DNA from: an uncultured Gammaproteobacteria bacterium
GTDB lineage: Bacteria > Patescibacteriota > Microgenomatia > UBA10105 > UBA927
DNA: 64,000 nucleotides
Assembly: GCA_964515005.1 (NCBI GenBank)
Contig: CAZEVT010000004.1
Span: forward strand, 4,302 to 68,301
Reading direction: 5' to 3'
Shown piece after piece: positions 2,273 to 17,841 of the stretch (positions are counted from its first letter, which is position 1; each line of letters opens with the position of its first letter). The notes beneath the pieces were generated by a model. The model did no database searches. It had not been told where the DNA came from and was given only the letters and a program-made list of their open reading frames with translations. The position numbers and the translations under genes were made by a program.

Positions 2273-2499
2273 AACATAAACATTTTAGAACCGTTGTGAT
2301 CTTTGTGGTTGTAGCCATTGCCTTTCTGGTCTACATTGTCGGCGTGGTACGCCAAGGCGCCGGATCGACCCAGAGCCGCGCCTCACGCAGTGAAACTTTG
2401 ACCCCCGGGGATGATGCCCTATCACTTGAACAGGACCTCAACAAACTTCAACAGGACCCCGAGCCCGGTGTTGAGCAGGAGCTCAACGCTATCCAGTAA
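2269..2499 (+). CDS. small single-pass membrane protein, hypothetical
   Basis: 4-nt overlap with the upstream gene; one transmembrane helix (VVIFVVVAIAFLVYIVGVV). Confidence 0.5.
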   Translation: MKHKHFRTVVIFVVVAIAFLVYIVGVVRQGAGSTQSRASRSETLTPGDDALSLEQDLNKLQQDPEPGVEQELNAIQ

Positions 2500-2508
2500 C
2501 CCCATCTT

Positions 2509-2799
2509 ATGGACGGTACGCTACGCGTTTCCATCCGGGTACGGAAATACTTGTGGGATGAGTTTGTGCATGACGTGGCCTACTTCCTCTACGCCACCAT
2601 CATCATTTCCAACGCCCTCTCCAAGCGGTACCTCCACCGCTCATTGCAGCAACTTATCGACGGCATATGGGCGATTCCGAACTTCCTTGCCGGAGTTATA
2701 CTTCTGATCCTAGCCGGCGCAGCAGGAATGGTCGTGATGGCGTCCATGTTTGCCATTCCGGTAATTCTGTACCTCGCCTCCACCGGAAGGCTTCAGTGA
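2509..2799 (+). CDS. small membrane protein, hypothetical
   Basis: ORF carrying two hydrophobic helices; third gene of the putative 1658..2799 operon. Confidence 0.5.
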   Translation: MDGTLRVSIRVRKYLWDEFVHDVAYFLYATIIISNALSKRYLHRSLQQLIDGIWAIPNFLAGVILLILAGAAGMVVMASMFAIPVILYLASTGRLQ

Positions 2800-2839
2800 G
2801 GGGAAACATCGTATTTTGAGCGTGAGGGGAGTATACAGC

Positions 2840-2904
2840 CCATCTTACTCAGATTTGTAGTCCGACAGGACGAAAAAGCTGATTAGATGGATGGATACCC
2901 GGAC
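2840..2904 (+). promoter_or_regulatory. conserved structured leader element, copy 2
   Basis: same core as copy 1; closing helix CCAUCU/AGAUGG; inner hairpin GUCC-GACA-GGAC carries a compensatory double change relative to GCCC-GACA-GGGC. Confidence 0.6.
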
Positions 2905-2928
2905 TTTCCTTAATTTATAGGGTATAAT

Positions 2929-3297
2929 TTGAGCATTCCTCTGATGAAATCATATATACGATTTGCACATCGCCTGATGACGCTCATGGATACAAAATTT
3001 AACCTTTTTGGTATCCGGTTTGGGATAGATCCGCTTCTGGATATCTGGCCGGGTTTTGGAAGTTTGATCGGAGCGGGCATTTCCAGTTATCTCTTTTGGA
3101 TAGCCTACAAGCTGAATGTTCCCACGCGGCTCTACTTACGCATGGGTTGGCACATAGCGGTAGATTTTGTATTGGGCGCGATACCGTTTGTAGGATTTGC
3201 CTTTGACCTTTTCTACCGTGCAAATGCAAAAAACCTCGCACTTCTTACCCCATACGTAGATTCAGAAATACTTGAGGGAGTGGTGATGGAGAGATAA
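2929..3297 (+). CDS. DUF4112-like small membrane protein
   Basis: GIDPLLDIWPGFGSLIGAGIS motif typical of DUF4112. The ORF opens at a TTG at 2929, but ATG 2944 (MKSYIRF) is the more likely start. A TATAAT lies at 2923-2928. Confidence 0.6.
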   Translation: MSIPLMKSYIRFAHRLMTLMDTKFNLFGIRFGIDPLLDIWPGFGSLIGAGISSYLFWIAYKLNVPTRLYLRMGWHIAVDFVLGAIPFVGFAFDLFYRANAKNLALLTPYVDSEILEGVVMER

Positions 3298-3366
3298 TCG
3301 AAGTGTATGGAGTTTACACTGAGTTCTACCGAAGTGAGCGCGGGAAGAGTATAATTTGGCGTAGTT

Positions 3367-4050
3367 ATGATCAAAGTTTTGCCTAAAGGTGCCGGTCATA
3401 GAAAACGATTAAGAGATAGATTTCTACAATCGGGCTTAGATGGATTTCTAGATTATGAAGTGATCGAATTGCTTTTAACTTTGGGAACACCCAGACGGGA
3501 TTGTAAGCAGATGGCGAAAGATGTGGTTAAAAAATTTAATGGGTTACGCGGCGCTCTTGATGCCTCAATTGAAGAATTACAAAATATTAGTGGAATAGGT
3601 CCGTATAATGCATTTGGCCTAAAACTCTTTCAGGAAATGTCTGCGCGTCTGGCAAGGGAGCAAATACCAGAAAAGATTACGCTCGATTCTTCAAAAGCTG
3701 TTGCGAATTATTTACAAAAATCTATAGGTTCAAAAAAGAAAGAATATTTTATTATGTTATCTTTAGACGCACGAAATAACTTAATAAAGATTAGTAATAT
3801 TTCAGTTGGTTCGCTTAACGCAAGCATTGTGCACCCAAGGGAGATTTTTAAAGAGGCAATTCAATCTTCTGCTGCGCACATATTAATAGCGCACAATCAT
3901 CCATCGGGTGACCCTGAAGCTTCGCCGGAAGATGTTGCCTTAACGCGACGATTGGGGGAAGCCGCAAAGATTTTTGACATAGATTTACTTGATCATGTTA
4001 TAGTTACAAGAGACAATTTTTTTAGCTTAAAGGAGCAAAATTTAATTTAA
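3367..4050 (+). CDS. radC: RadC-like JAB-domain protein (UPF0758)
   Basis: HNHPSGDPEASPEDVALTRRL JAMM/JAB motif and overall RadC length; first gene of the AT-rich island. Confidence 0.85.
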   Translation: MIKVLPKGAGHRKRLRDRFLQSGLDGFLDYEVIELLLTLGTPRRDCKQMAKDVVKKFNGLRGALDASIEELQNISGIGPYNAFGLKLFQEMSARLAREQIPEKITLDSSKAVANYLQKSIGSKKKEYFIMLSLDARNNLIKISNISVGSLNASIVHPREIFKEAIQSSAAHILIAHNHPSGDPEASPEDVALTRRLGEAAKIFDIDLLDHVIVTRDNFFSLKEQNLI

Positions 4051-4054
4051 ATAA

Positions 4055-4402
4055 ATGTCTGGTATAAAAAAACTTACAGAAAAAATTAAGAAATTTCGAG
4101 ATGAGCGAGATTGGAAACAATTTCATAACCCGAAAGATATGTCCCTTTCGCTAGTTTTGGAGGCGGCAGAGGTAATGGAGCATTTCCAATGGATGAGTTC
4201 AGAAGAAATGATAGTTTATACAAAAAGTAATAAGCATGAAATTGGTGAAGAGTTGGCAGACGTATTATATTGGATTCTTCTCATAAGTCATGATTTAGAG
4301 ATTGATATTATAGATGCATTAGAAAAGAAGCTTATAATTCAAGAAAAAAAATATCCAATAGAAAAAGCTAAGGGGAAGCACACTAAATATAACAAGCTTT
4401 AA
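4055..4402 (+). CDS. MazG-like nucleotide pyrophosphohydrolase domain protein
   Basis: about 115 aa; LEAAEVMEHFQW and EELADVLYWIL helices characteristic of MazG/NTP-PPase all-alpha domains; 4 nt after radC. Confidence 0.7.
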   Translation: MSGIKKLTEKIKKFRDERDWKQFHNPKDMSLSLVLEAAEVMEHFQWMSSEEMIVYTKSNKHEIGEELADVLYWILLISHDLEIDIIDALEKKLIIQEKKYPIEKAKGKHTKYNKL

Positions 4403-4405
4403 ATT

Positions 4406-6265
4406 ATGATCCTTTACGATGCCTCTATAGAACATTTTAATGAAGACGTAATGCAAAATCGTATTGCAGATCGTGCAGCCGAAAAATATCACGCGTACTA
4501 TAAAAGACAACCGGGGGAGTCTGAATATCGTTCATGGGCAATGTCGTTGGCAATTTTAAACAATAGCTTCATCTATGCTGGACTTAAAGATAATCATATA
4601 GTAGTTGAATACGAGCTCCCATTCGCTTCACAAAGGATCGATGTGTTATTGTTTGGACATGATGTTGATGGAAAAGAAAATATAGTGATTATGGAGCTTA
4701 AACAGTGGTCAAATGACAATGTTAAGGATTCAATTTCAGAGGGAAATATAATCGTTAATTATGGAAAATTCAAAAAAGAACAACCCCATCCGGCTTTGCA
4801 GGTGCAGGGGTATTATTTCGGTTTGAAAGATTTTGTTCAAGTTTTTGATGAAACAAATGCTCCAGATTTGAGCGCGACTATCTATGCACATAATTATTCG
4901 AAATACAAAGATGCAACACTCTTTTCTCCTAAATATTCTGAATTAATAAAAACGTTCCCGATATTTACAAAAGAAGATGCTGTCGAACTCGGCAGGTATT
5001 TAAAAAAACGTCTCCAAAGTGGAAAGGGGCAGTTGGTTTATGAACACTTTGCAAGAAGTCCAATCGGCCCATCAAAAAAACTTCTTGATCACACGAGTGA
5101 AATGATTAATAAACAACAAATATTTAACTTAATTGATGATCAAATTGTAGCGTACAACGCCATCATGCACAAAGCAAAACAGTTAGCAAAAATAAAAAAG
5201 AAATCAGTAATAATCGTAAAAGGTGGTCCTGGCACAGGGAAGTCAGTCATCGCGCTCGAGGTTATGGGTGAGCTTTTAAGGCGGGGAAAAACGGTTATGC
5301 ACGCTACTGGTTCGTCCGCGTTTACAAACACACTTAGAAAAATTGTTGGCGTTCGCGCACGAACTCTCTTCAAGTTTTTTAATGGCTTTACAACAACCAA
5401 ACCAGATTCTCTTGATGTTCTTGTCTGTGATGAGGCACATCGTATTAGAGAGACTAGTGTGAACAGATACACTCCTAGAGATCAAAGAACAAATTTGCCT
5501 CAGATCGACGAATTATTAAGAATAGCAAAGCTAAATATTTTCTTTATCGATGAAAATCAAACAGTTCGCCCAAATGAAATCGGCAGTGTTGCAATCATTA
5601 AAGAAGCTGCCAGACGCTTTGAGATCGATGAGTCAGAAATAATTGAATTTGAATTAAAAACCCAGTTTCGTTGTTCTGGGTCGGATGCATATTTACAATG
5701 GATTGATAAAGTTTTAGATATTCAAGGTTCTGACATCGCACACTTTGATCCTAAAATGGAATTTCGTATTTTTGAGTCTCCGTCTGAAATGATGACGGAA
5801 ATTAGAGCTAGAAATCAAGAGAAGGGCAATTCTGCAAGAATAGTTGCTGGGTTTTGCTGGCCATGGAGTAATCCAAATAGTGACGGGTCCTTAGTAAGTG
5901 ATGTAAAGGTTGGTAATTTTGAAATGCCGTGGGAGAAAAAAAATGAGTTTTGGAAATGGGCAACTGACCCGAGTGGAATGGAACAAGTTGGAACAGTGTA
6001 TACGTCACAAGGTTTTGAGTTTGACTATATAGGCGTCATATTCGGTAACGATTTAGTGTATGACTTGAAAAAACAAAAATGGATTGTAAAACCAGAAAAT
6101 TCACACGACACAATGGTTACAAGAAACAATGAAGACCTAGATAGACATTTAAAAAATGTATACCGGGTACTTATGTCCAGAGCTCACAAAGGGGTTTATG
6201 TATATTTTGTGGATAAGGCAACTGAAGAGTACTTTAAAGCTAATCTTAAAGAAGAACAAAAATGA
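4406..6265 (+). CDS. DUF2075-family ATPase/helicase-like protein with an N-terminal PD-(D/E)xK-like nuclease domain (Schlafen-like architecture)
   Basis: N-terminal QRIDVLLFG...IVIMELKQW (D...ExK); Walker A GGPGTGKS; Walker B/DEAH-like LVCDEAHR; C-terminal TVYTSQGFEFDYIGVIFG typical of DUF2075/UvrD-like C-termini. Confidence 0.8.
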   Translation: MILYDASIEHFNEDVMQNRIADRAAEKYHAYYKRQPGESEYRSWAMSLAILNNSFIYAGLKDNHIVVEYELPFASQRIDVLLFGHDVDGKENIVIMELKQWSNDNVKDSISEGNIIVNYGKFKKEQPHPALQVQGYYFGLKDFVQVFDETNAPDLSATIYAHNYSKYKDATLFSPKYSELIKTFPIFTKEDAVELGRYLKKRLQSGKGQLVYEHFARSPIGPSKKLLDHTSEMINKQQIFNLIDDQIVAYNAIMHKAKQLAKIKKKSVIIVKGGPGTGKSVIALEVMGELLRRGKTVMHATGSSAFTNTLRKIVGVRARTLFKFFNGFTTTKPDSLDVLVCDEAHRIRETSVNRYTPRDQRTNLPQIDELLRIAKLNIFFIDENQTVRPNEIGSVAIIKEAARRFEIDESEIIEFELKTQFRCSGSDAYLQWIDKVLDIQGSDIAHFDPKMEFRIFESPSEMMTEIRARNQEKGNSARIVAGFCWPWSNPNSDGSLVSDVKVGNFEMPWEKKNEFWKWATDPSGMEQVGTVYTSQGFEFDYIGVIFGNDLVYDLKKQKWIVKPENSHDTMVTRNNEDLDRHLKNVYRVLMSRAHKGVYVYFVDKATEEYFKANLKEEQK

Positions 6266-6963
6266 GACAAATACAAGATGACGTCCTTTCGTATAGGGAA
6301 ATGTGCGATGCGGAAAAGGTTCAAACGCTTCAGAGAGGAATGAATTTTCGCCTCAATTCGTCATATTCAGTTATTTTAATGTCCCAGAGATCAAATGCAC
6401 CTTATGCAGATAGGATACATTCTGATGGAGTAACCATTGAATATGAGGGACATGATGTATCGCGCCAGTCATACACCCACAATCCAAAGCTTGAAGATCA
6501 ATCGCATCAGCTACCCTCAGGCAAGCTCACGCAAAATGGTTTGTTTATTGATTCAATTAATAAATACAAAGAAAATAAATCGACACCCGAGCGCGTAAAG
6601 GCGTACGAAAAAATTATGAATGGTGTCTGGTCATTGAAGGGCTATTTTGATCTCATTGACTACAAAATAGTGAATGACGGCAAGCGCAACGTATTTCGAT
6701 TTATTTTACGACTCTCGGATAAACAATCCCCTGATACGAATATTCAGAACATGCAGCTTAGTCATACACGTCTTATTCCATCTGAGGTAAAAAAAGAAGT
6801 GTGGAAGAGAGATGAAGGTAAATGTGTCAAATGCGGATCTCGAGAAAATTTACATTTCGATCACGATTTGCCCTTTTCACGAGGTGGAACAAGTCTAACA
6901 GCGAAGAACGTACGACTATTATGTTTGAAACACAATTTAGAAAAATCAGCGAAAATTCAGTAG
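6262..6963 (+). CDS. HNH endonuclease with an uncharacterised ~170-aa N-terminal domain
   Basis: C-terminal CVKCGS...LHFDHDLPFSRGG...LLCLKHN HNH motif; ATGA overlap with the upstream ATPase gene. Confidence 0.8.
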   Translation: MRQIQDDVLSYREMCDAEKVQTLQRGMNFRLNSSYSVILMSQRSNAPYADRIHSDGVTIEYEGHDVSRQSYTHNPKLEDQSHQLPSGKLTQNGLFIDSINKYKENKSTPERVKAYEKIMNGVWSLKGYFDLIDYKIVNDGKRNVFRFILRLSDKQSPDTNIQNMQLSHTRLIPSEVKKEVWKRDEGKCVKCGSRENLHFDHDLPFSRGGTSLTAKNVRLLCLKHNLEKSAKIQ

Positions 6964-7204
6964 CATTTTCTTAAACGAATTTTACCCGACACCGGTGGGG
7001 AGGGTTGAGGTGGAGGGAATGGTAAGACATAGATGCCATCGGTACGCTCAGCACAACTGAATACTTAATAATCTTCAATGCTAGAACTCCAAGGTAAAAA
7101 ATTTATCTATCACATGATTGAGTATCTTTGATACTTTTTGATATAAAAAAGCTATATTGTTTTTTGGCAGTCTTTAGATCATACTGCTTAAGTAGCTCAA
7201 TTTT

Positions 7205-7495
7205 ATGCTTGATTATGATGATATGACTACCAAAGAATTAAAAGAAAAAGAAACAGTAAGAACAAATGATCTGCTTTTAGAACTCAACAATAGAGTAGGA
7301 GTAATGATTTCTCTGCTTTTACGGATGGTGCAACAAGACAAATCATCAATAAGCCTAAAAGATCAAATTCAAATTCTTAACAATCTAGGTTTACGCCCTC
7401 GTGACATTGCCGCTATCCTTGGTAAGACCCCTACTCACATCAGTAAAGAACTTGTTGGCATAAGAAAAACAAAAACAACAGCAACCGAGGAGTAA
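7205..7495 (+). CDS. small sigma70-region-4-like HTH protein, paralog 1 of a tandem array
   Basis: ILNNLGLRPRDIAAILGKTPTHISKELVGIRK resembles the sigma70_r4/LuxR-type HTH; start may instead be Met-7. Confidence 0.55.
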   Translation: MLDYDDMTTKELKEKETVRTNDLLLELNNRVGVMISLLLRMVQQDKSSISLKDQIQILNNLGLRPRDIAAILGKTPTHISKELVGIRKTKTTATEE

Positions 7496-7501
7496 TCGAC
7501 T

Positions 7502-7717
7502 ATGAGCGACCTGCAATTACTTGAACAAATATCTAACAAGCTGAGTGCATTAATTGCGCTTTCTCTACCAAGTGACGTAATAAAAATGTCTACAGCAGAC
7601 GGAGAGCGATTACTCAGACGATTCGACCTAAACAATCAAGCTATAGCAGACATTTTGGGAACTACAAAGAGAACAATTGAAGTGATGAAGAGTAGAGATC
7701 AAAAAAATAATAAATAA
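7502..7717 (+). CDS. small sigma70-region-4-like HTH protein, paralog 2
   Basis: ERLLRRFDLNNQAIADILGTTKRTIEVMKSR; 7 nt after paralog 1. Confidence 0.55.
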   Translation: MSDLQLLEQISNKLSALIALSLPSDVIKMSTADGERLLRRFDLNNQAIADILGTTKRTIEVMKSRDQKNNK

Positions 7718-7719
7718 AC

Positions 7720-7908
7720 ATGGAAGACACAAAGGAAATCGAAAAAACGCTTAATAATCTCAAAAAATCAATTGATACTTTGATTTTGCTTGAGCTTTGT
7801 AAACTCGGTGCCGGCGCAAAAGAAATTCGAAATATTTTAGGGGGTTTGGACAATAATCAATTTTCCGCTATAAATGCAGCTATCAAAGGAGGCAAACAAC
7901 ATGGATGA
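7720..7908 (+). CDS. small HTH-like protein, paralog 3
   Basis: LCKLGAGAKEIRNILG; 3 nt after paralog 2; same N-terminal amphipathic helix pattern. Confidence 0.5.
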   Translation: MEDTKEIEKTLNNLKKSIDTLILLELCKLGAGAKEIRNILGGLDNNQFSAINAAIKGGKQHG

Positions 7909-8080
7909 AAAAATTATCGGCATCCTAGAGGATATAAAAAAATTAGTAATTCTTGGTTTAATTACACGCGGTGTTCAGGGAAAAGACATAGCCCAGGTAA
8001 TCGGGGTAGATAAAAGCACGATCACGAGAATAGCCCCAGCACGAAAAATAAAAGTGAATAAAATAGATGAGCAGATATAA
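7901..8080 (+). CDS. small HTH-like protein, paralog 4
   Basis: LGLITRGVQGKDIAQVIGVDKSTITRIA. The ORF track opens at 7874, but ATG 7901 gives an 8-nt overlap with paralog 3 and is preferred. Confidence 0.5.
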   Translation: MDEKIIGILEDIKKLVILGLITRGVQGKDIAQVIGVDKSTITRIAPARKIKVNKIDEQI

Positions 8081-8477
8081 TCCCGATTTAATAAAAAAAA
8101 TAAGTCAAAAACTTAACAAAGCCCCGACCTATATTCGAGAGCAGATAAGCCGACGTGCATTACGACATAATATTTTATCAGAGGCAGAATTAGCCAATTG
8201 GGCAAGATCTTTAGGAATTTCTGCGGATTCATATATCCGCACATTATCGCCAAGTGTTCAAAGTCAAATTTTATCAACTCCCTCACCTGTTAAAAATTAT
8301 TTTTCTAAACCCTCAGTACTAAGGATTGTTCAACTTGGTAAAAAAGAAAATGAATGGTATAACCTTTGGTGGGTGCAGCTACTAATAGCCTTTTTTGTAG
8401 TAGGGATATTAGCAAGTACAATTTCTCAAATTTTAGGGGTATATTTTACAAATTCACTCGGTTTAACTAAACCATAA
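8067..8477 (+). CDS. membrane-anchored relative of the HTH array (N-terminal HTH-like segment plus C-terminal TM helix)
   Basis: SEAELANWARSLGISADSYIRTL followed by the hydrophobic WWVQLLIAFFVVGILASTISQILGVYF; overlaps paralog 4. Confidence 0.5.
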   Translation: MSRYNPDLIKKISQKLNKAPTYIREQISRRALRHNILSEAELANWARSLGISADSYIRTLSPSVQSQILSTPSPVKNYFSKPSVLRIVQLGKKENEWYNLWWVQLLIAFFVVGILASTISQILGVYFTNSLGLTKP

Positions 8478-8581
8478 GTCGCAGACATGCCTTGAAGCCT
8501 AAATTATTTCCCCACGGCGTGGATTGCCGGAGAAATGATTACACACCGGGTGTGAAATAGCTAGACACCTAATAAAAATTT

Positions 8582-8609
8582 ATGTATAAACTTTCTCCAT
8601 CAGATTTTG
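8582..8609 (+). repeat. 28-bp direct repeat, copy A (5' end of the nuclease gene)
   Basis: atgtataaactttctccatcagattttg matches 10253..10280 at 27 of 28 positions. Confidence 0.8.
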
Positions 8610-9229
8610 CTTATTTATACGAGGAGTGTAAGCATTGCTATTACCTGAAAATCCGTAAGGGCATTGGGCGGCCGAGCATGCCGTTCCCCGGAGTATTTGG
8701 CGCGATCAATACCAGATTGCAGGGGAATATGGTGGGGAAGGACTTGCGGGAGCTTTCGGATAAACTCCCCGAGGGGACCGTGGAGAGTCAGGAGGGGTAT
8801 GTGCAATCCGCCGTTATTGCCGGAACCACGGTATTTGTCAAAGGCAAGTATGATCTTCTGGTCAGACTCCCGGATGGCACGTACATGATAGTTGATCTCA
8901 AACTCAGTACTCCGAAAGATGAGAAGGTTGCCAAATATCAATCGCAACTATGGTCGTATGTATATGCCTTTGAACATCCTGCCGCGGGAGCACCAAAGAA
9001 GATAACGCGGGCGGGACTCCTGATTTTCTATCCCGATGCCGTTTCATTTGCCGGCGGCGTCGCTTCCCTTACGTTTCCGCCCACGTGGCTGGCGGTACCG
9101 GTGGACCGCGATGCATTTGCGAAGTTTATCGTAGGAGTGAACGATCTTTTGGAAGGCCCAACGCCGCCGGAGAATACGGATTGTAATTGGTGTAAATATA
9201 GACAAGCTGTTAAAGTGCTTGAAAACTGA
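8582..9229 (+). CDS. PD-(D/E)xK nuclease of the RecB/Cas4-like family with N- and C-terminal Cys pairs
   Basis: motifs KYDLLV, IVDLKLS (DxK) and QSQLWSYVYAF (QxxxY); CKHCYY near the N-terminus and CNWCKY near the C-terminus. Confidence 0.65.
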   Translation: MYKLSPSDFAYLYEECKHCYYLKIRKGIGRPSMPFPGVFGAINTRLQGNMVGKDLRELSDKLPEGTVESQEGYVQSAVIAGTTVFVKGKYDLLVRLPDGTYMIVDLKLSTPKDEKVAKYQSQLWSYVYAFEHPAAGAPKKITRAGLLIFYPDAVSFAGGVASLTFPPTWLAVPVDRDAFAKFIVGVNDLLEGPTPPENTDCNWCKYRQAVKVLEN

Positions 9230-9281
9230 GTCATGATAAATAGGAAATCAACCCGACGGGTTACATTGATTTGCTAACTCT

Positions 9282-9398
9282 ATGATCCTCAATAAAACCA
9301 TCCTGATTCTGGAAGATGACCTCCTTACGCTTTCAAAGATATTGGATCGGTTAGCAACGATTGAGCAGGATCAGCCGTATGATTATTCGGAAAAATAG
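9282..9398 (+). pseudogene. 38-aa remnant resembling a response-regulator receiver N-terminus
   Basis: MILNKTILILEDDLLTLSKILDRL... then a stop; looks like the first beta-alpha unit of a REC domain only. Confidence 0.4.
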
Positions 9399-9410
9399 TA
9401 TAATTGACCC

Positions 9411-10247
9411 ATGACCACCCGTGACATCGAAACGACGAAAATTGCCCTGTTCAAAGGGAAAAAGATAAGAAAAATTATTTATAACAACGACTGGTGGTTT
9501 TCGATTATTGACGTCATTGCAGCGCTTACGGGAAATGCTCGTCCGAGAAAATATTGGAGCGATCTAAAGAAGAAGCTTATTAAAGAAGGCTATTTTGAAG
9601 TGTCCGAAAAAATCGGACAGTTGAAATTGGAAGCTCCTGACGGGAAAAAGCGCGAAACTGACTGTGCAAACACAGAAACACTTTTCCGCATTGTCCAATC
9701 CATTCCCTCTCCGAAAGCAGAACCGTTTAAGCGCTGGCTGGCAAGAGTGGGGTATGAGCGAATCCAAGAAATAGAAGATCCGGAGCTTGCTACCAAGAGA
9801 ACGCGGATACTTTATAAACTGAAAGGATATCCAAATGATTGGATTGAAAAACGCATGCGCGGGATAGCGATTCGCGAAGAATTGACCGATGAATGGCAAA
9901 AACGAGGAGCAAGACATCAAAAAGAATATGAAATTCTTACCGCTGAGATTTCCAAAGCGACGTTCGGCGTTACTCCGAGTGGTTATAAAAAGCTGAAAGG
10001 TTTGAAGCGGGAGAATCTGCGCGATCATATGGATGATTTTGAGCTAATTTTTACCATGCTTGGTGAGCGATCAACGACGGAAATTCACCGTACAGAAGAT
10101 TCGAGGGGTGTGCCAAAACTAAAAGCAGATGCTAGAGCCGGTGGTGATATAGCCGGCGGAGCAAGAAAAAAGTTGGAAAAACGCTTAGCTCGTTCGATTG
10201 TTTCAAAAAATAATTATTTACCAAAGAGAAGAAAATCGTTAAAGTAA
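9411..10247 (+). CDS. Bro-N domain protein (phage antirepressor-like)
   Basis: IRKIIYNNDWWFSIIDVIAALTGNARPRKYWSDL and SPKAEPFKRWLARVGYERIQ match Bro-N signatures; TATAAT at 9399-9404. Confidence 0.75.
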   Translation: MTTRDIETTKIALFKGKKIRKIIYNNDWWFSIIDVIAALTGNARPRKYWSDLKKKLIKEGYFEVSEKIGQLKLEAPDGKKRETDCANTETLFRIVQSIPSPKAEPFKRWLARVGYERIQEIEDPELATKRTRILYKLKGYPNDWIEKRMRGIAIREELTDEWQKRGARHQKEYEILTAEISKATFGVTPSGYKKLKGLKRENLRDHMDDFELIFTMLGERSTTEIHRTEDSRGVPKLKADARAGGDIAGGARKKLEKRLARSIVSKNNYLPKRRKSLK

Positions 10248-10252
10248 TCTCT

Positions 10253-10280
10253 ATGTACAAACTTTCTCCATCAGATTTTG
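10253..10280 (+). repeat. 28-bp direct repeat, copy B
   Basis: atgtacaaactttctccatcagattttg; opens a 54-codon orphan ORF (MYKLSPSDFVSSGSG...) that lies antisense to the 10271..10816 gene. Confidence 0.8.
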
Positions 10281-10816
10281 TCAGTTCCGGGAGTGGGTTC
10301 CGGGGGGAGATTTTCTTCTCCGCTTGGGGCGGCTGCGCCGTAGTCACCGGGCTTGAGCCATTCGACATACGTGCAGCCGGTGGCCTGCCGCTTGGCCGCA
10401 TCCCAACCGCTGGTTGAACATTTTTTCATCTTCTTGCCCGTGGCCGTCGTGTACAGGACGAGCTTCTTGCCGCATTCCGGGCAATCTTCGTTGAGCTCTT
10501 CGGTCGTGCCGTTTATCCATTCGATATAGTCACACCCTTCGGCCTTCTTGGTGTCTTTGTTCCAGACGTTGGTCGAACATTTCTTCATCTTCTTTCCAAA
10601 CCGGGTGACTGCAAAAACAAGAGGCGAGCCGCATGTGGGACATTTCTCGTTCAAGGTTTTGGGCTCGGGCATGATCCATTTCACATAATCACAGCCTTCG
10701 TTTTTCTTCGTGTCTTTGTTCCAGGAGCCGGTAGAACAGCGCTGAAGCTGACGGCCGGATTTGGTTTCGACAACTTCTCCCAGAGGGGAACCACATTTGG
10801 GACACATATCTGCCAT
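10271..10816 (-). CDS. triple topoisomerase-type C4 zinc-ribbon protein
   Basis: three tandem repeats of CPxCGSPL...GKKMKKCST..WNKDTKK.EGCDY.EW resembling zf-C4_Topoisom. Confidence 0.7.
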   Translation of the reverse strand: MADMCPKCGSPLGEVVETKSGRQLQRCSTGSWNKDTKKNEGCDYVKWIMPEPKTLNEKCPTCGSPLVFAVTRFGKKMKKCSTNVWNKDTKKAEGCDYIEWINGTTEELNEDCPECGKKLVLYTTATGKKMKKCSTSGWDAAKRQATGCTYVEWLKPGDYGAAAPSGEENLPPEPTPGTDKI

Positions 10817-13579: not shown

Positions 13580-15277
13580 ATGAAAAGATTTTTTGGGGTG
13601 GCGATACTTGCGGTTTTTGTATTCTTTTTTGCGGTTTTCGCGGGTCAGGCGGCAGCAAAAAGCGGAGAAGAGTCAATTCAGTCTTACGATGTTGAAGCAA
13701 CCATTGGGGAAGACGCAACCGTTTCCTTCACCGAGACCATTGTCTATAATTTTGACGGACTTGAGCGCCACGGCATCATCCGGACGATTCCGGTGACCAA
13801 AACCAACGCACAGGACAAGAAATTTGCGCTCGATATCACTATTGTTTCGGTAACTGATCCCGGCGGAAAGACATACCGGTACACAACCACCCGTGAAGGA
13901 GATGCGCTTCAAGTGAAAATCGGGGACCCGGATAAAACGATAACAGGTCAACATATCTACGTCATCCGGTATACCGCCGCTGGCGCCTTGACCTACTTCC
14001 CCGAGCATGATGAGCTCTACTGGAATGCGATAGGCACCGAGTGGGACGTGCCGGTTGCCAAAGGCACAACCCGCGTCACCATCCCGCAAGCGTTTGCGGA
14101 CCCGGATGTCCACGTTGCCTGTTTCACCGGGCCCACGGGGGCAACGGAGAGCGATTGTCCTACCGGGTACAAAGACGGGGTCGCCACCGTGACTCCCGCG
14201 CGGGAGCTTTCGGCAAATGAGGGGCTGACGGTCGTCGTCGGGTTCCCCAAAGGCGCGGTTGCGGTCGTCGAGCCCAAGGAAGTTGTTCCCTTTTTCAGTA
14301 CGTTTTTCGGCAGGATTGTGGCAGGGATACTTTTTGTTCTAGGATTTATTTGGTATACGCTCGTCCCGCTGTGGATCATCTGGTACTGGTGGAAAAACGG
14401 CCGCGACCCGAAGCCCGCCATGGGGGTGACGAGCGCCTGGTTCAGCCCGCCCAAAAACAGTAAGCATAGGCCGCTTACCCCCATCGAAACCGGTGCGCTT
14501 ATTGATGAGACGGTCGATATGCGGGACATATTTGCAACCATCGTCGATCTTGCCCGCCGCGGATATATGAAAATTACGGAGAAGGAAAAAAATACATTCA
14601 CGCTCACCAAAACCAAAGAATGGAAGGAAGATGCGGAACTGCTTTCTTTTGAAAAGGAACTACTCAAAGGAATTTTTGAATCAAAGGACATGGTAAAGCT
14701 TGGCGACGTCAATCTCGTCTCGACGGTCTCAAAGGTATCCGGTCAGGTATACGAGTCCCTCGTTGCGGACGGATTTTTCCCCAAAAATCCACAGAGCGTC
14801 CGAACGGTCTACTATGTGATTGCCGGGATTGCGTTTTTCACGTTTAACCTCTTTCTTGCCCTCATTGCAGTACTCGTTGGCCGCCATATTCCCAGGAAAA
14901 CCCCAATGGGCGCACAAGAAGCTGCGGTTGCGAAGTCTCTGAAGAATTTTCTTGTAAGCCAGGACCGGCACCTGAAGTTTCAGGCGCAAAATCAGATGTT
15001 TTTTGAGAAGCTTTTGCCGTATGCGGTTGCCTTCGGCGTGGAAAAGATTTGGGCCGAACGTTTTGCAAAGATCAAAATGACGCCGCCGGACTGGTATGAG
15101 CCTTACCATTCCGGCACGTTTAACAGTGCGGTGTTTGCCCGGTCACTGGGTGCGGGCTACAGCCACGGATTTGCTTCTTCTGCCTCATACAAGTCCTCAA
15201 GCGGATTTTCATCAGGGTTCTCCGGAGGCGGATCCTCAGGCGGTGGTGGAGGAGGCGGTGGTGGAGGGAGTTGGTAG
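13580..15277 (+). CDS. DUF2207-like membrane protein with a Gly-rich C-terminal tail
   Basis: signal peptide, beta-rich ectodomain, TM helices near residues 250 and 400, and a C-terminal SSGFSGGGSSGGGGGGGGGGSW tail characteristic of DUF2207. Confidence 0.7.
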   Translation: MKRFFGVAILAVFVFFFAVFAGQAAAKSGEESIQSYDVEATIGEDATVSFTETIVYNFDGLERHGIIRTIPVTKTNAQDKKFALDITIVSVTDPGGKTYRYTTTREGDALQVKIGDPDKTITGQHIYVIRYTAAGALTYFPEHDELYWNAIGTEWDVPVAKGTTRVTIPQAFADPDVHVACFTGPTGATESDCPTGYKDGVATVTPARELSANEGLTVVVGFPKGAVAVVEPKEVVPFFSTFFGRIVAGILFVLGFIWYTLVPLWIIWYWWKNGRDPKPAMGVTSAWFSPPKNSKHRPLTPIETGALIDETVDMRDIFATIVDLARRGYMKITEKEKNTFTLTKTKEWKEDAELLSFEKELLKGIFESKDMVKLGDVNLVSTVSKVSGQVYESLVADGFFPKNPQSVRTVYYVIAGIAFFTFNLFLALIAVLVGRHIPRKTPMGAQEAAVAKSLKNFLVSQDRHLKFQAQNQMFFEKLLPYAVAFGVEKIWAERFAKIKMTPPDWYEPYHSGTFNSAVFARSLGAGYSHGFASSASYKSSSGFSSGFSGGGSSGGGGGGGGGGSW

Positions 15278-15297
15278 TATCTTGCAACTTTTAAGCT

Positions 15298-15330
15298 AAA
15301 TTCACGCCAAATTGACAAAAATACGTGAAT
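15298..15330 (+). promoter_or_regulatory. 33-bp operator-like direct repeat, copy 1 (palindrome AAATTCACG-N15-CGTGAATTT)
   Basis: identical to 15349..15381; contains TTGACA. Confidence 0.6.
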
Positions 15331-15348
15331 TTGACCTATTTTTGATTC

Positions 15349-15381
15349 AAATTCACGCCAAATTGACAAAAATACGTGAAT
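15349..15381 (+). promoter_or_regulatory. 33-bp operator-like direct repeat, copy 2, overlapping a sigma70-like promoter for the Fic gene
   Basis: TTGACA at 15363-15368, then 17 nt, then TATACT; ATG at 15398. Confidence 0.6.
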
Positions 15382-15397
15382 ATGCTATACTTTTCCC

Positions 15398-16300
15398 ATG
15401 ACTACCGGTTCAACGTTAAAAATCCGCATAGCCGAGCTCAAAAAGAGATTCGATACGCTTAGGAGGGGCAAAGACGCGCTCCTTACCGTCCTTGATGAGG
15501 CTGAAGTGCCGGAAAGCGTCTATAACTCCAATGCCATAGAAAACTCTACCTTAACCCTGAAACAAACGGAGCAAATTCTTTTGGAGTTGGAAGTTTCCGG
15601 TCATATAACACTTCGTGAGGTATATGAAGCGAAAAATCTGGCACGAGTCATCGGATACACCCGTGAAAAAGCGAAAGAAAGCAATGTAACCATAGATGTC
15701 ATTCTATTTTTACATAAAATGCTGTTGTCCCATATCCATGAATCAATTGCGGGGAAATTTCGTACACTTGGGCAATACGTGCGCGTGGGCACATTTATAG
15801 CCCCGCCGCCTGAACACGTAGTGAAACTCATGGATGAGTTATGTATGGCATATGAAAATGACTTTAGCGGGTACTTTTTGGATAAAATTGCAATGTTCCA
15901 TCTTGGATTTGAAACGATTCATCCGTTTGTTGATGGGAACGGCAGAATCGGTCGGGAGATAATGAACTATCAATTACGTCGACTGGGATTTCCGCGGGTA
16001 ATCATACGGGATAAGGAAAAGCAAACGTATTACCGATCATTCATTGAGTACCGCGATTATAAACGTACCAAAACGATGGAACGTGTCGTTGCACTCGCAA
16101 TCATGGAGTCACTTCATAAGAGAATTGCGTATCTCGTTGGTGCAACGATTATTCCTTTGTCTGATGTGGTCCGGGATCAACATGCAGCGCCATCGGCTGT
16201 GTTTAACGCCGCAAAACGTCAGACGATCCCTGCGTTTCGGGAAAAAGGCGTATGGAAGATCGGGAAAGAAGAGATGGAGCGTAGTCAGAAACCCGTCTAA
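15398..16300 (+). CDS. Fic/Doc (Fido) family protein
   Basis: HPFVDGNGRIGR Fic motif. Confidence 0.9.
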   Translation: MTTGSTLKIRIAELKKRFDTLRRGKDALLTVLDEAEVPESVYNSNAIENSTLTLKQTEQILLELEVSGHITLREVYEAKNLARVIGYTREKAKESNVTIDVILFLHKMLLSHIHESIAGKFRTLGQYVRVGTFIAPPPEHVVKLMDELCMAYENDFSGYFLDKIAMFHLGFETIHPFVDGNGRIGREIMNYQLRRLGFPRVIIRDKEKQTYYRSFIEYRDYKRTKTMERVVALAIMESLHKRIAYLVGATIIPLSDVVRDQHAAPSAVFNAAKRQTIPAFREKGVWKIGKEEMERSQKPV

Positions 16301-16626
16301 GCTTTTTCTTTTGCAATCGTTTTCCAGTGGTAGAGATAGAGCGGGAGGCCTATAAGCACCATCGCGATTGCGCCGGAGAATTCCCGCTGGCGTTGCCGCT
16401 GCATTTCCATCTTTTGATCCTCAATCCATTTGGCGTCCAGCTTCGGGTCCACGGCTGTTTCCTTTGTCGGTTCAGCCATCCGCGGCTGGGTCATGTACTG
16501 ATCGGCGCCGCGAAACACATAGACTTTGATCCCCAGATCAGCGAGGCGAATAAGTCCGATGACGGTGATAAGAAGTCCGACGAAAGAAAAGAGGTACAGA
16601 TACAGGAGGCGTATATTGAACTTCAT
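16297..16626 (-). CDS. small two-TM membrane protein, hypothetical
   Basis: the ORF runs to 16695, but start MKFNIRLLYLYLF at 16626 is preferred; convergent with fic with a 4-nt overlap. Confidence 0.45.
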   Translation of the reverse strand: MKFNIRLLYLYLFSFVGLLITVIGLIRLADLGIKVYVFRGADQYMTQPRMAEPTKETAVDPKLDAKWIEDQKMEMQRQRQREFSGAIAMVLIGLPLYLYHWKTIAKEKA

Positions 16627-16756
16627 AGTCTTACTGTATCTGGTTTTTACTTCCAGGACAAGCGATATATTGAGTAGCACAACCCTGCTGGACATTATCG
16701 GCTCCTTCTGGTATATTGCCTGCTACTACAACCCCTGCCCGATATAAAAAGTATCT

Positions 16757-17305
16757 ATGAATAGCTGGATTGAAGAAGCAAGAACACGAGGAATACAAGA
16801 ATCCCGCGCCCGTTGGGATGAACACAAAGCCGTGGCAGCGGCAAAGGCAAAGTATCACGCAGAGACAGTTACTGAAGAGACGGTGATAAACTTTCTCGAT
16901 CAATTTCTTGAGCCGATGGCAATTGTGGCAAAGGATCTTGCCAGCCGCGGATATACGGTGGAGGATGAGGGGTACAAATACCTCATGGTAGGGCAACACG
17001 CCAGCGAACAGTATGCATTAATAGAGAACGTGAGAGAAAGAGACAGAGATGTCTATGGTAGGGCATTTGGTCGCGTGTGGACGGTTACCACTCCCGGGGG
17101 GAGCGTTTTAGATACCGTGTGTTTGTTCCCCATGATAAACGATGAGACGCATTTTGCAAAAGCATATTATGACTCGGTTTCCGCCGACGGTGTCACTATC
17201 GATTCTCCCGTGGATATGCAAAAAGCCGTTGCTGATTTACGCAGTATGATCGGGTCACGCATAACCACCTATTTTAGCGAACACCCTCCGGCTCTGAAGT
17301 CGTGA
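16757..17305 (+). CDS. hypothetical protein (182 aa)
   Basis: intact ORF. Confidence 0.5.
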   Translation: MNSWIEEARTRGIQESRARWDEHKAVAAAKAKYHAETVTEETVINFLDQFLEPMAIVAKDLASRGYTVEDEGYKYLMVGQHASEQYALIENVRERDRDVYGRAFGRVWTVTTPGGSVLDTVCLFPMINDETHFAKAYYDSVSADGVTIDSPVDMQKAVADLRSMIGSRITTYFSEHPPALKS

Positions 17306-17318
17306 GGTTGTCTAGGTT

Positions 17319-17765
17319 ATGGCAATCTACATCCACACATTCAATAAACCGGTGTTTGTAGCCAACTTCAATCCTGAAAAAATTGATTGGCAGCAGATAC
17401 TCCGGACGAATCCAAATTCCGAAATGTCTGTGCCGCCGAGGTGGAAGGATGATATAAGCTCGGATATAAGTGTGGGGCCACGTCGGTCTGTTCTTGTGAC
17501 GTTTGAGTCGATACGTAATCGAAATGACACGGTTGGTGAATTGGAAGTGTATCAGAAGCCGGCGGTAACAGTGCGATTAAAAAAAGAATCGGAGGCAAAA
17601 GAGCGCGAAATCCCGCTCCCAAGTATACGTATTGATGAATCTCACCCATTTGCGCCGGTGTATCAGCCTGGAAATGAAGGGGCGCTCATTTATCGGGTCG
17701 TCAAATATATGCCTTTTGCCGAGATCCGAGTAGAGGATCGAAGTCAAGTTTTAGCATACGCGTAA
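17319..17765 (+). CDS. hypothetical protein (148 aa)
   Basis: intact ORF 14 nt after the previous gene. Confidence 0.5.
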   Translation: MAIYIHTFNKPVFVANFNPEKIDWQQILRTNPNSEMSVPPRWKDDISSDISVGPRRSVLVTFESIRNRNDTVGELEVYQKPAVTVRLKKESEAKEREIPLPSIRIDESHPFAPVYQPGNEGALIYRVVKYMPFAEIRVEDRSQVLAYA

Positions 17766-17769
17766 TTTG

Positions 17770-17841
17770 TAGCGCGTAGGGGAGTCGAACCCCTCTTGCT
17801 AGATTGAGAATCTAACGTCCTAACCGATAGACGAACGCGCC
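17770..17841 (-). tRNA. tRNA-Glu (anticodon CUC)
   Basis: hand-folded from the reverse complement GGCGCGUUCGUCUAUCGGUUAGGACGUUAGAUUCUCAAUCUAGCAAGAGGGGUUCGACUCCCCUACGCGCUA. It has a 7-bp acceptor stem (G1-U72 wobble), a 3-bp D stem as in bacterial tRNA-Glu, the anticodon loop UUCUCAA, and a GGGGUUCGACUCCCC T-arm. No CCA is encoded. Confidence 0.75.

Follow-up and report, generated by a model that had tools for sequence, protein, structure and literature searches.

An AT-rich island of stacked putative anti-phage modules in a variable slot beside a Cas4-like nuclease gene

Genes and composition of the AT-rich island

The DNA analysed here (the window) is a stretch of 64,000 nucleotides from an uncultured bacterium deposited as a gammaproteobacterium and placed by GTDB among the Patescibacteriota (GCA_964515005.1, contig CAZEVT010000004.1, positions 4,302 to 68,301 of the forward strand). 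Our subject is an AT-rich island of 5,281 bp at 3300-8580 (all positions are window coordinates), which fills a slot between two anchors: a gene for a DUF4112 membrane protein on the left (2929-3297, plus strand; Pfam DUF4112 E 1.9e-25) and one for a Cas4-like PD-(D/E)XK nuclease on the right (8582-9229, plus strand; Pfam PDDEXK_1 1.7e-10, PADLOC Cas4 5.9e-7). Taken as a whole and assigned to no strand, this slot cargo is delimited by its G+C and tetranucleotide deviation. Its G+C content is 0.367 as against 0.492 in the remaining 58.7 kb, corresponding to z = -15.6 when set against 200 other 5,281-bp windows (mean 0.492, sd 0.008, minimum 0.474), and no second G+C dip of this kind occurs inside the 64 kb. 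Third-codon G+C (GC3) lies at 0.22-0.36 in all nine island genes compared to 0.51-0.69 in flanking genes. Moreover, once base composition is normalised, island and remaining window correlate in their observed/expected tetranucleotide profiles at r = 0.60, as opposed to 0.88-0.94 for control windows of 5 kb wholly outside the island, so the signal goes beyond base composition. The AT-rich distinctness claimed in the original prediction, which was made from the sequence alone, is therefore borne out by G+C, codon-usage and tetranucleotide analyses, all of which deviate strongly. According to a two-state change-point fit, the right border (at about 8653) is sharp and lies slightly inside the start of the PD-(D/E)XK gene; the softness of the left border (at about 2873) is due to the intermediate composition of the DUF4112 gene (G+C 0.447).

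Pfam also agrees with the gene content named in that prediction (RadC, MazG-like, DUF2075, HNH and small helix-turn-helix (HTH)-like open reading frames (ORFs)). At least two independent modules make up the island, a 3.6-kb core cassette and a 1.3-kb remainder. The first cassette gene (3367-4050, plus strand) encodes a RadC-like JAB protein with an N-terminal UPF0758/HhH domain (Pfam RadC 1.4e-43, UPF0758_N 1.2e-10), in which the JAB/MPN metal motif H-x-H-P-S-G ... D is kept (HNHPSG...D, AHNHPSGDPEASPEDV, readable in the sequence); members of this family have been proposed to process nucleic acids or nucleotides in conflicts that involve mobile elements (PMC5512222). The second (4055-4402, plus strand) encodes a MazG-like all-alpha nucleotide pyrophosphohydrolase (Pfam MazG-like 2e-14) with readable acidic stretches (EAAEVMEHF, EIGEELADV). 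Judged by matches to PDB sequences, its closest relatives among solved structures appear to be an archaeal pyrophosphatase (4qgp, 2.3e-19) and dCTP pyrophosphatase 1 (DCTPP1/RS21-C6; 6sqw and 2a3q, 2.8e-15).

The third gene (4406-6265, plus strand) specifies a nuclease-helicase of 619 aa that combines a PD-(D/E)XK motif with a DUF2075 superfamily 1B (SF1B) helicase core, the latter now named SLFN-g3_helicase (Schlafen group 3 helicase domain) in Pfam (1.8e-84). No Pfam nuclease family matches this protein. D79 and E97-L98-K99 are invariant in 33 homologues and fall on predicted beta strands (77-85, 91-99), and the Walker A sequence GGPGTGKS is likewise invariant in its homologues. PADLOC returns partial matches to PDC-S41 (2.5e-21, best stretch residues 525-600) and AbiO (5e-12), and one to the Nhi model (1.2e-13) that covers residues 249-468 only and scores below PDC-S41; sequence and profile searches of PDB gave nothing useful. 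The fourth gene (6262-6963, plus strand), whose start overlaps the DUF2075 gene stop by 4 nt, encodes a predicted SRA-HNH endonuclease of 233 aa. Its Pfam HNH match (2.1e-4) spans residues 188-229 and reaches 21.8 bits with the cut-off at 21.4, and C188, C191, H198, D200, H201, N216, H224 and N225 are invariant in 35 homologues. In an AlphaFold2 (AF2) model (pLDDT 73, pTM 0.73), the N-terminal 160 residues resemble SRA domains when compared with PDB by Foldseek: best ScoMcrA (5zmm, E 1.2e-5), then the SRA domain of SUVH5 bound to methylated DNA (3q0c, E 1.6e-4, target-normalised TM 0.61-0.64), AspBHI and UHRF1; Pfam SAD_SRA is not detected by sequence at E <= 0.01. The modelled architecture is thus suggestive of an SRA-HNH type IV, modification-dependent endonuclease. 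Downstream of it lies a non-coding junction of 241 nt (6964-7204, no strand assigned, no Rfam match), and it is at this point that the cassette stops in every other genome examined.

The HNH gene occurs in two allelic forms. A JGI metagenome contig (L002; loci used for comparison carry L numbers) differs from the window over 7,564 nt solely by T6635A (position 3445 of L002), which turns TTG into TAG (L125*), so the endonuclease is knocked out in that population. Such a nonsense allele is consistent with a costly immune nuclease.

Past the junction, four HTH-like mini-proteins (H1-H4 of 96, 71, 62 and 59-68 aa; 7205-8080, plus strand) are recognised as ORFs with weak matches to PADLOC PDC-M64B/C and Pfam HTH_23, and their pairwise similarity is weak as well (H1-H2 E 1e-4, H3-H4 3e-3). 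The last island gene (8067-8477, plus strand; G+C 0.341, GC3 0.219) encodes a small membrane protein of 136 aa with a hydrophobic C-terminal segment, for which there is no family match in Pfam or PADLOC and no homologue in any locus fetched. We considered whether these five small ORFs are debris of a larger gene and rejected this for H1, for which a library of 1.84 billion representatives contains 130 homologue clusters, nearly all of them stand-alone (54-100 aa), and whose tandem layout recurs elsewhere: one set comprises proteins of 85, 70 (Sigma70_r4_2), 59 and 59 aa and has a Hypoth_Ymh protein behind it, others comprise 89/71/50+ aa and 84/72 aa. Contigs with tandem mini-HTH operons, unrelated to one another yet alike in the sizes and order of the proteins, are L075, L077 and a JGI contig (3300071358). 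Going by these sequence comparisons, the mini-protein genes form a real, conserved operon that is independent of the cassette.

In keeping with the original prediction, there is no integrase family among the ORFs scanned in 1-17.7 kb of the window and no tRNA at the island borders, the nearest being a tRNA-Glu (17769-17841) 9.2 kb away. That prediction had also seen no flanking direct repeat. For the island itself this stands, since our search of 2400-9600 for direct and inverted repeats yielded only short chance-level matches, but a 29-nt repeat does start at the right border (8581) and recurs at 10252 (discussed below). Rfam gave zero matches at E <= 1 on 2500-10600, a scan for promoters and terminators produced no signal exceeding shuffled expectation, and Pfam found no structural, replication or transfer genes and no recombinase within 3300-8580.

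A variable slot and a widely distributed cassette

To place the island in its genomic setting, we compared contigs encoding the closest homologues of the PD-(D/E)XK anchor and added a scan of metagenome contigs. The anchor gene itself is host-like in composition here (G+C 0.500, GC3 0.532) and in relatives, and has 681 homologues at E <= 1e-5, the 120 listed being 60-91% identical. One relative (L013) has both immediate flanks in common with the window and carries 7.6 kb of unrelated genes between them (N6_N4_Mtase, AAA_15, ResIII, NucS_C); its DUF4112 orthologue (72% aa and 75% nt identity to ours) stands directly left of this other cargo. A further DUF4112 homologue (65% aa) is found near the cassette in L079. 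Other occupants upstream of the anchor are a type III restriction-modification pair (ResIII and N6_N4_Mtase), AAA_15 and HD in L003, where Lon, a beta-lactamase and an SNase make up the left context, an MmeI/Eco57I/ResIII set plus a SMODS cyclase with DUF6602 in L011, and Fic in L009. In L006 the order is Lon, RVT_1, EcoRI_methylase, GmrSD_N-HNH and PD-(D/E)XK, followed on the right by tRNA-Glu, GreA, AsnRS, SerRS and SecA as in the window. Since Lon protease is encoded about 1.6 kb past the window's left end (as read from two metagenome contigs that carry the island), the interval from Lon to tRNA-Glu amounts to about 19 kb in the window vs 5 kb in L006, and the AT-rich block is therefore the least ameliorated part of a larger variable region.

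Aligning seven relatives, we find that homology begins exactly at the anchor ATG, and cargo is co-oriented with the anchor and ends 2-156 nt from its start codon. For a census we took the ORFs located up to 8 kb from the anchor on its upstream side in 19 non-redundant relatives (duplicates removed), 108 in total; the list is headed by Eco57I and ResIII (six each), N6_N4_Mtase and N6_Mtase (four each), followed by EcoRI_methylase, SWI2_SNF2, AAA_15, GmrSD_N, Fic, HNH, HD and Methylase_S (three each) and by DpnI and RVT_1 (two each), with HSDR_N, AAA_21 and MazG-like also among the leading families. As judged by comparing ranked lists, these are absent from the 25 leading families of a downstream control (102 ORFs within 8 kb), which consist mostly of single housekeeping ones plus FtsK_gamma, Trypsin_2, large serine recombinases and a few transfer genes. 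In most relatives, moreover, the upstream cargo is AT-richer than the anchor and the DNA downstream of it. Because slot cargo varies and is dominated by immune genes, chiefly of restriction-modification, GmrSD, reverse-transcriptase, CBASS-like and Fic type, the slot is a defence hotspot in the usual sense and the island its current occupant. The syntenic comparison that had been called for in the original prediction thus shows relatives with common flanks to hold different genes in the slot, and the island to sit in a recurrent variable hotspot rather than in the place of a one-off insertion.

To survey the cassette, we scanned a single genome for each GTDB species, which yielded 21 loci with full-length DUF2075 relatives (57-81% identity), and then searched these loci with the proteins of the window. 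By their titles these belong to bacteria (Levybacteria, Saccharibacteria, Doudnabacteria, Acidobacteriota, Terriglobia, Syntrophaceae, Spirochaetales, 'Gammaproteobacteria') and archaea (Bathyarchaeia, Nanoarchaeota, Pacearchaeota, Woesearchaeota, Micrarchaeota); many of the contigs are long (60-825 kb) and flank G+C ranges from 0.28 to 0.575, so this host breadth is not merely a binning artefact. MazG is immediately upstream of DUF2075 or one gene away in 17 of the 21 loci, RadC (31-77% identity) accompanies it in 11, with the order sometimes MazG-RadC, the HNH gene in four and small HTH ORFs in none. Both HNH homologues whose context was read start 2-3 nt after the DUF2075 gene. Protein database searches add at least 5,309 DUF2075 and at least 7,949 HNH relatives, including more than 100 clusters of each that are 70-87% identical to the window's proteins, and, all in all, unrelated phyla and archaea carry the RadC-MazG-DUF2075(-HNH) block with protein identities of 57-87%.

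In nearly all hosts the cassette is AT-richer than its surroundings, for example 0.308 vs 0.484 G+C in a micrarchaeon (L031) and 0.355 vs 0.463 in a doudnabacterium (L024), and those closest to the window's have a matching G+C of 33-37%. The cassette lineage is therefore itself low in G+C, and this is why the cassette shows up as an island in a 49% host. The same slot is occupied by the cassette in two relatives, directly upstream of the PD-(D/E)XK anchor in L062 and separated from it by five other small genes in L015; there the DUF2075 proteins are 79% identical to ours as compared to 63% and 57%, respectively, for the anchor proteins. A variant in which NERD replaces RadC (NERD-MazG-DUF2075-HNH; L079 3989-7708, G+C 0.348 vs 0.462) has a DUF4112 gene on one side and a distant PDDEXK_1 gene on the other, and its unequal identities (MazG 76%, HNH 84%, DUF2075 only 31%) show mosaic exchange within the cassette.

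Among mobile-element collections, PLSDB plasmids contain distant homologues only (<= 41% identity), in neighbourhoods of the restriction-modification type. IMG/VR has no close relative of the cassette or its DUF2075 protein, on which ground a phage origin of the cassette was dropped. Three further contexts were seen in the survey. The DUF2075 protein is C-terminally fused to a LexA/UmuD-like Peptidase_S24 domain in L023 (8436-10829) and L034 (9995-12364), a hint that proteins of this branch may be activated by DNA damage or RecA filaments; the DUF2075 gene lies near a Cas1 gene, with one small ORF between, in L027; and it adjoins ParB/RepB genes in L025.

Origin and role of the island

Our preferred reading, to which we assign a probability of roughly 0.8, is that the island is a stack of horizontally acquired anti-phage modules in a defence hotspot. 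The parts of this reading are not equally firm. That the island is of foreign origin and occupies a hotspot is very probable indeed, and the horizontal acquisition put forward in the original prediction gains support from deviant composition, non-conserved synteny and the presence of the same block in unrelated phyla and archaea. A defence function for the cassette is probable, if with a good deal less assurance; a specific action against modified cytosine is tentative and somewhat less likely to be right than wrong. In such a scenario, the SRA domain would flip out and read modified cytosine of invading DNA for the HNH domain to cut, the nuclease-helicase would load onto foreign or replicating DNA and degrade it like Nhi, and the MazG enzyme would hydrolyse dCTP or 5-modified dCTP, thereby starving phages with modified genomes, with RadC presumably acting on nucleic acid or nucleotides in support. 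More speculative still, and in our estimate rather doubtful, is the notion that the pair of MazG and PD-(D/E)XK-DUF2075 (usually joined by RadC or NERD and by SRA-HNH) makes up an undescribed multi-component anti-phage system. Similarly doubtful is its proposed mode of action, in which depletion of (modified) dCTP would be combined with destruction of cytosine-modified DNA and the set would move as a unit among ultra-small-celled members of the candidate phyla radiation (CPR), DPANN/Bathyarchaeia and soil bacteria.

Several points weigh against this reading. RadC and MazG families include housekeeping members. PADLOC finds no complete known system in the island, its matches being partial or weak model matches alone. 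The AF2 model of the nuclease-helicase is poor (pLDDT 56), so that its Foldseek neighbours (Dda, RecD2, SLFN11, Dna2, Upf1) lend weak support to the helicase core alone, and the SRA assignment builds on a moderate model (pLDDT 73) with Foldseek E-values of 1e-5 to 1e-3. As for the host side, the source is a bacterium with a small genome and probably related to CPR/Patescibacteria, but the nearest named anchor homologues are labelled inconsistently (Candidatus Wunengus, 78%, on an 8-kb contig; Patescibacteria, 60%). Among the cassette contigs, the short low-G+C ones titled 'Gammaproteobacteria' are probably mis-binned, which would narrow the apparent host range, and the genes around the cassette in L016 are not diagnostic of an archaeal source. 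As for the timing and route of acquisition, the two other metagenome contigs that carry the island are identical to the window or, in the case of L002, one base different, and we found neither a relative with an empty slot nor a near-identical strain without the island, hence the acquisition cannot be dated. Nor did we find a mobility gene, tRNA or flanking repeat that would account for the island's arrival.

It is here that a different origin has to be weighed, namely that the island belongs to, or is left over from, an integrative element (an integrative and conjugative element (ICE), an integrative and mobilisable element (IME) or a prophage-like one), delivered by a site-specific recombinase to an attachment site formed by the first ~29 nt of the PD-(D/E)XK gene. 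The idea draws on the 29-nt direct repeat mentioned above. Copy 1 (8581-8609, plus strand) consists of one base before the ATG plus the start codon and first nine codons of the PD-(D/E)XK gene. Copy 2 (10252-10280, plus strand; 28/29 identical) is an orphan 5' fragment of that gene, and overlaps the end of a minus-strand zinc-ribbon gene (10271-10816), supplying its last codons and stop. It is also in line with such an element that orphan fragments of this kind lie beside the intact gene in seven relatives (L013 9885-9913, L043 10001-10080, L053 2743-2780, L056 7960-8076, L062 2375-2403, L069 5178-5206, L072 4193-4315), several of them breaking at nt 28-30. Large serine recombinases are encoded 0.4-1.5 kb downstream of the anchor in L011, L040 and L044, FtsK_gamma, FtsK/SpoIIIE and type IV secretion system (T4SS)-pilin genes recur downstream of the anchor in relatives, and Bro-N and SLT transglycosylase genes follow just downstream in the window. 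However, what the two copies enclose is the PD-(D/E)XK gene together with Bro-N (8581-10280) rather than the AT-rich island, and no further copy is present at the left border, elsewhere in the window or in the additional 4 kb upstream covered by L001. The fragments of L013, L015, L062 and L069 have homologous spacer sequence, which suggests a single old duplication passed on by descent, possibly a small upstream ORF, instead of repeated integrations; those of L043, L053, L056 and L072 look independent, with an HD gene between fragment and intact gene in L053 and Bro-N plus Fic in L056. Together with the lack of integrase families in the 1-17.7 kb scanned and of close cassette relatives in IMG/VR, and with an anchor gene that is host-like in composition in every genome, these findings make delivery by an integrative element improbable to our minds.

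We also asked how the repeat itself arose. A k-mer or assembly artefact was rejected because the copies differ at one base; it is countered as well by L002, an independently assembled JGI contig that spans both copies, and by the relatives' orphan fragments, which differ from the resident gene at many synonymous sites. Between the copies lies a Bro-N domain gene (9411-10247, plus strand; Pfam Bro-N 2.8e-12, GC3 0.394) in a segment of about 1.1 kb (9196-10292) that the closest relatives L035 and L070 lack, having other small genes there. The C-terminal tail of the PD-(D/E)XK protein is replaced in the window (215 aa vs the usual 223 aa in L035 and L070). A modest reading is that the Bro-N segment was once upstream of another PD-(D/E)XK gene, as it is in L015 and L056, and brought the start of that gene along. 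We also considered whether permuting a circle that carries Bro-N, the cassette and PD-(D/E)XK could turn the gene order of L015 into that of the window, and abandoned this, as there is no repeat copy between Bro-N and RadC in L015. In the acquired-module reading, cargo would be exchanged by recombination in the conserved flanks after DNA uptake, which we favour as the most likely route because no recombinase is present at the island borders; use of the first ~29 nt of the anchor gene as a recombination site for cargo exchange is less likely.

A few observations on this border and its counterparts are added for completeness. At about 9290-9396 there is an ORF fragment (...ILILEDDLLTL...) that resembles the beginning of a response-regulator receiver domain. 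The serine recombinase genes (L011 11944-13820; L040 12082-13638 and 18389-19867; L044 11076-12623) often come after a small FtsK_gamma protein, and in L011 a 105-nt inverted copy of the 3' part of the recombinase gene just upstream of that gene suggests an invertible segment. In L035, a duplicate of about 25 nt of the zinc-ribbon gene 3' end (945-975, 1250-1275) flanks a gene for a 76-aa membrane protein, so that this lineage offers two examples of a small gene lying between copies of a duplicated gene end.

Another possibility concerns function: the RadC-MazG-nuclease-helicase set might be a transferred module for DNA repair and nucleotide sanitation that clears non-canonical dNTPs and damaged DNA and would be useful to reduced genomes. 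RadC and MazG/DCTPP1 do have house-cleaning members, and the closest solved relatives of our MazG protein are dCTP pyrophosphatases. The two Peptidase_S24 fusions link the DUF2075 family to DNA-damage signalling, and the absence of a complete PADLOC system fits a repair module, too. What speaks against it is the company the genes keep: the slot in relatives holds almost only restriction-modification and other immune genes, and coupling to the SRA-HNH enzyme is tight (overlapping or 2-3-nt-spaced genes). The distribution, being patchy, both bacterial and archaeal and AT-rich in each host, is typical of accessory conflict genes, and a nonsense HNH allele segregating in one population is as expected of a costly immune nuclease. 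Furthermore, the combination of a nuclease with DUF2075 has proved anti-phage in experiments on Nhi and Nhi-like proteins (bioRxiv 10.1101/776245; 10.1101/2022.05.11.491447). A repair or sanitation role thus appears quite improbable. Finally, that the region is native and low in G+C by local mutational or selective bias, without any transfer, is hardly conceivable: some local heterogeneity does exist, with AT content somewhat above the genome mean in the nearby DUF4112, Bro-N and Fic genes too, yet the -15.6 sd shift is limited to nine contiguous genes with a sharp right edge, the composition-normalised tetranucleotide signature differs, and the block is missing at this site in the relatives compared and present in other phyla at up to 87% protein identity.

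Outside the island, the window is ordinary bacterial chromosome encoding AsnRS, SerRS, SecA, a release factor and a large envelope-polysaccharide cluster. The latter (41588-63256) is a long co-oriented set of genes for envelope polysaccharide synthesis and glycosylation, including a GDP-mannose dehydratase-type epimerase, UDP-glucose dehydrogenase, PMT_2 glycosyltransferases, a Polysacc_synt flippase and YfhO. Nearer to the island, about 4.2 kb (13580-17760) with genes for a DUF2207 membrane protein, Fic and three small proteins lie between a zinc-ribbon/transmembrane gene and the 3' end of tRNA-Glu (minus strand). In L006 the small zinc-ribbon/transmembrane gene directly adjoins tRNA-Glu, so 13580-17760 looks like a second insertion, beside a tRNA.

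Relation to known defence systems

As a phenomenon, the island is a textbook genomic island and will not surprise specialists. It does, however, document, for an uncultured lineage with reduced genomes, a defence hotspot whose anchor gene is defined; immune repertoires of such lineages are thought to be sparse and are hard to study. Its cassette crosses the divide between bacteria and archaea at up to ~76% protein identity. Since the cassette retains a composition of its own in every host, it lends itself to tracing how genes flow among micro-organisms of groundwater and sediment. The gene combination also gives rise to a testable hypothesis, in which a DCTPP1-like pyrophosphatase, an SRA-HNH enzyme and a helicase-nuclease would act jointly against cytosine-modified phages. 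We found no published description of the four-gene cassette or of PDC-M64, and no paper in which DUF2075 and MazG are mentioned side by side.

Defence hotspots between conserved core genes have been described in Acinetobacter (PMC11723918) and in the genomic islands of Pseudomonas (PMC12629846). Like these, the slot described here has conserved flanks, a variable cargo dominated by immune genes, low G+C and, as is often the case, no recombinase of its own. It differs in its host, an uncultured small-genome lineage known from metagenomes alone, and in the details of its right border, where the anchor is a Cas4-like PD-(D/E)XK gene, cargo abuts the start codon and orphan 5' anchor fragments recur. 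For the mini-protein operon, PADLOC's PDC-M64 is the nearest comparison: H1 has weak matches to PDC-M64B (1.4e-4) and PDC-M64C (2e-3) and tandem mini-HTH genes recur, but the H1 scores are far too weak for membership.

As for the cassette enzymes, the island MazG protein is predicted to be an all-alpha MazG-like nucleoside triphosphate (NTP) pyrophosphohydrolase like DCTPP1/RS21-C6 (sequence match 2.8e-15). Characterised defences that deplete nucleotides, such as dCTP deaminase and dGTPase, use other folds than MazG. For MazG domains, a defence role has been predicted but not validated (PMC13092281). With ScoMcrA (5zmm) the HNH protein would have in common an SRA domain that is N-terminal to HNH, the same order as in the SRA-HNH part of ScoMcrA, and AspBHI (4oc8) is a related reader. 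Unlike ScoMcrA, the island protein is much shorter (233 aa), without a sulfur-binding domain, and coupled to a DUF2075 helicase gene. Such coupling has precedent, as modification-dependent endonucleases often neighbour DUF2075 NTPases according to Lutz et al. (PMC6765204).

A further parallel is Nhi from S. epidermidis (SERP2475), which together with Nhi-like proteins (N-terminal nuclease plus DUF2075) protects against phage (bioRxiv 10.1101/776245; 10.1101/2022.05.11.491447). The island nuclease-helicase resembles Nhi in that its PD-(D/E)XK motif is N-terminal to a DUF2075/SF1B core and in that its fold neighbours Dda, Dna2 and Upf1 are those reported for Nhi. It departs from Nhi in its partial hidden Markov model (HMM) matches and in belonging to an operon with MazG, RadC and SRA-HNH rather than standing alone. 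All told, the island is ordinary in kind, a defence island in a hotspot, and its cassette is probably a multi-gene variant of Nhi-like defence found in bacteria and archaea.

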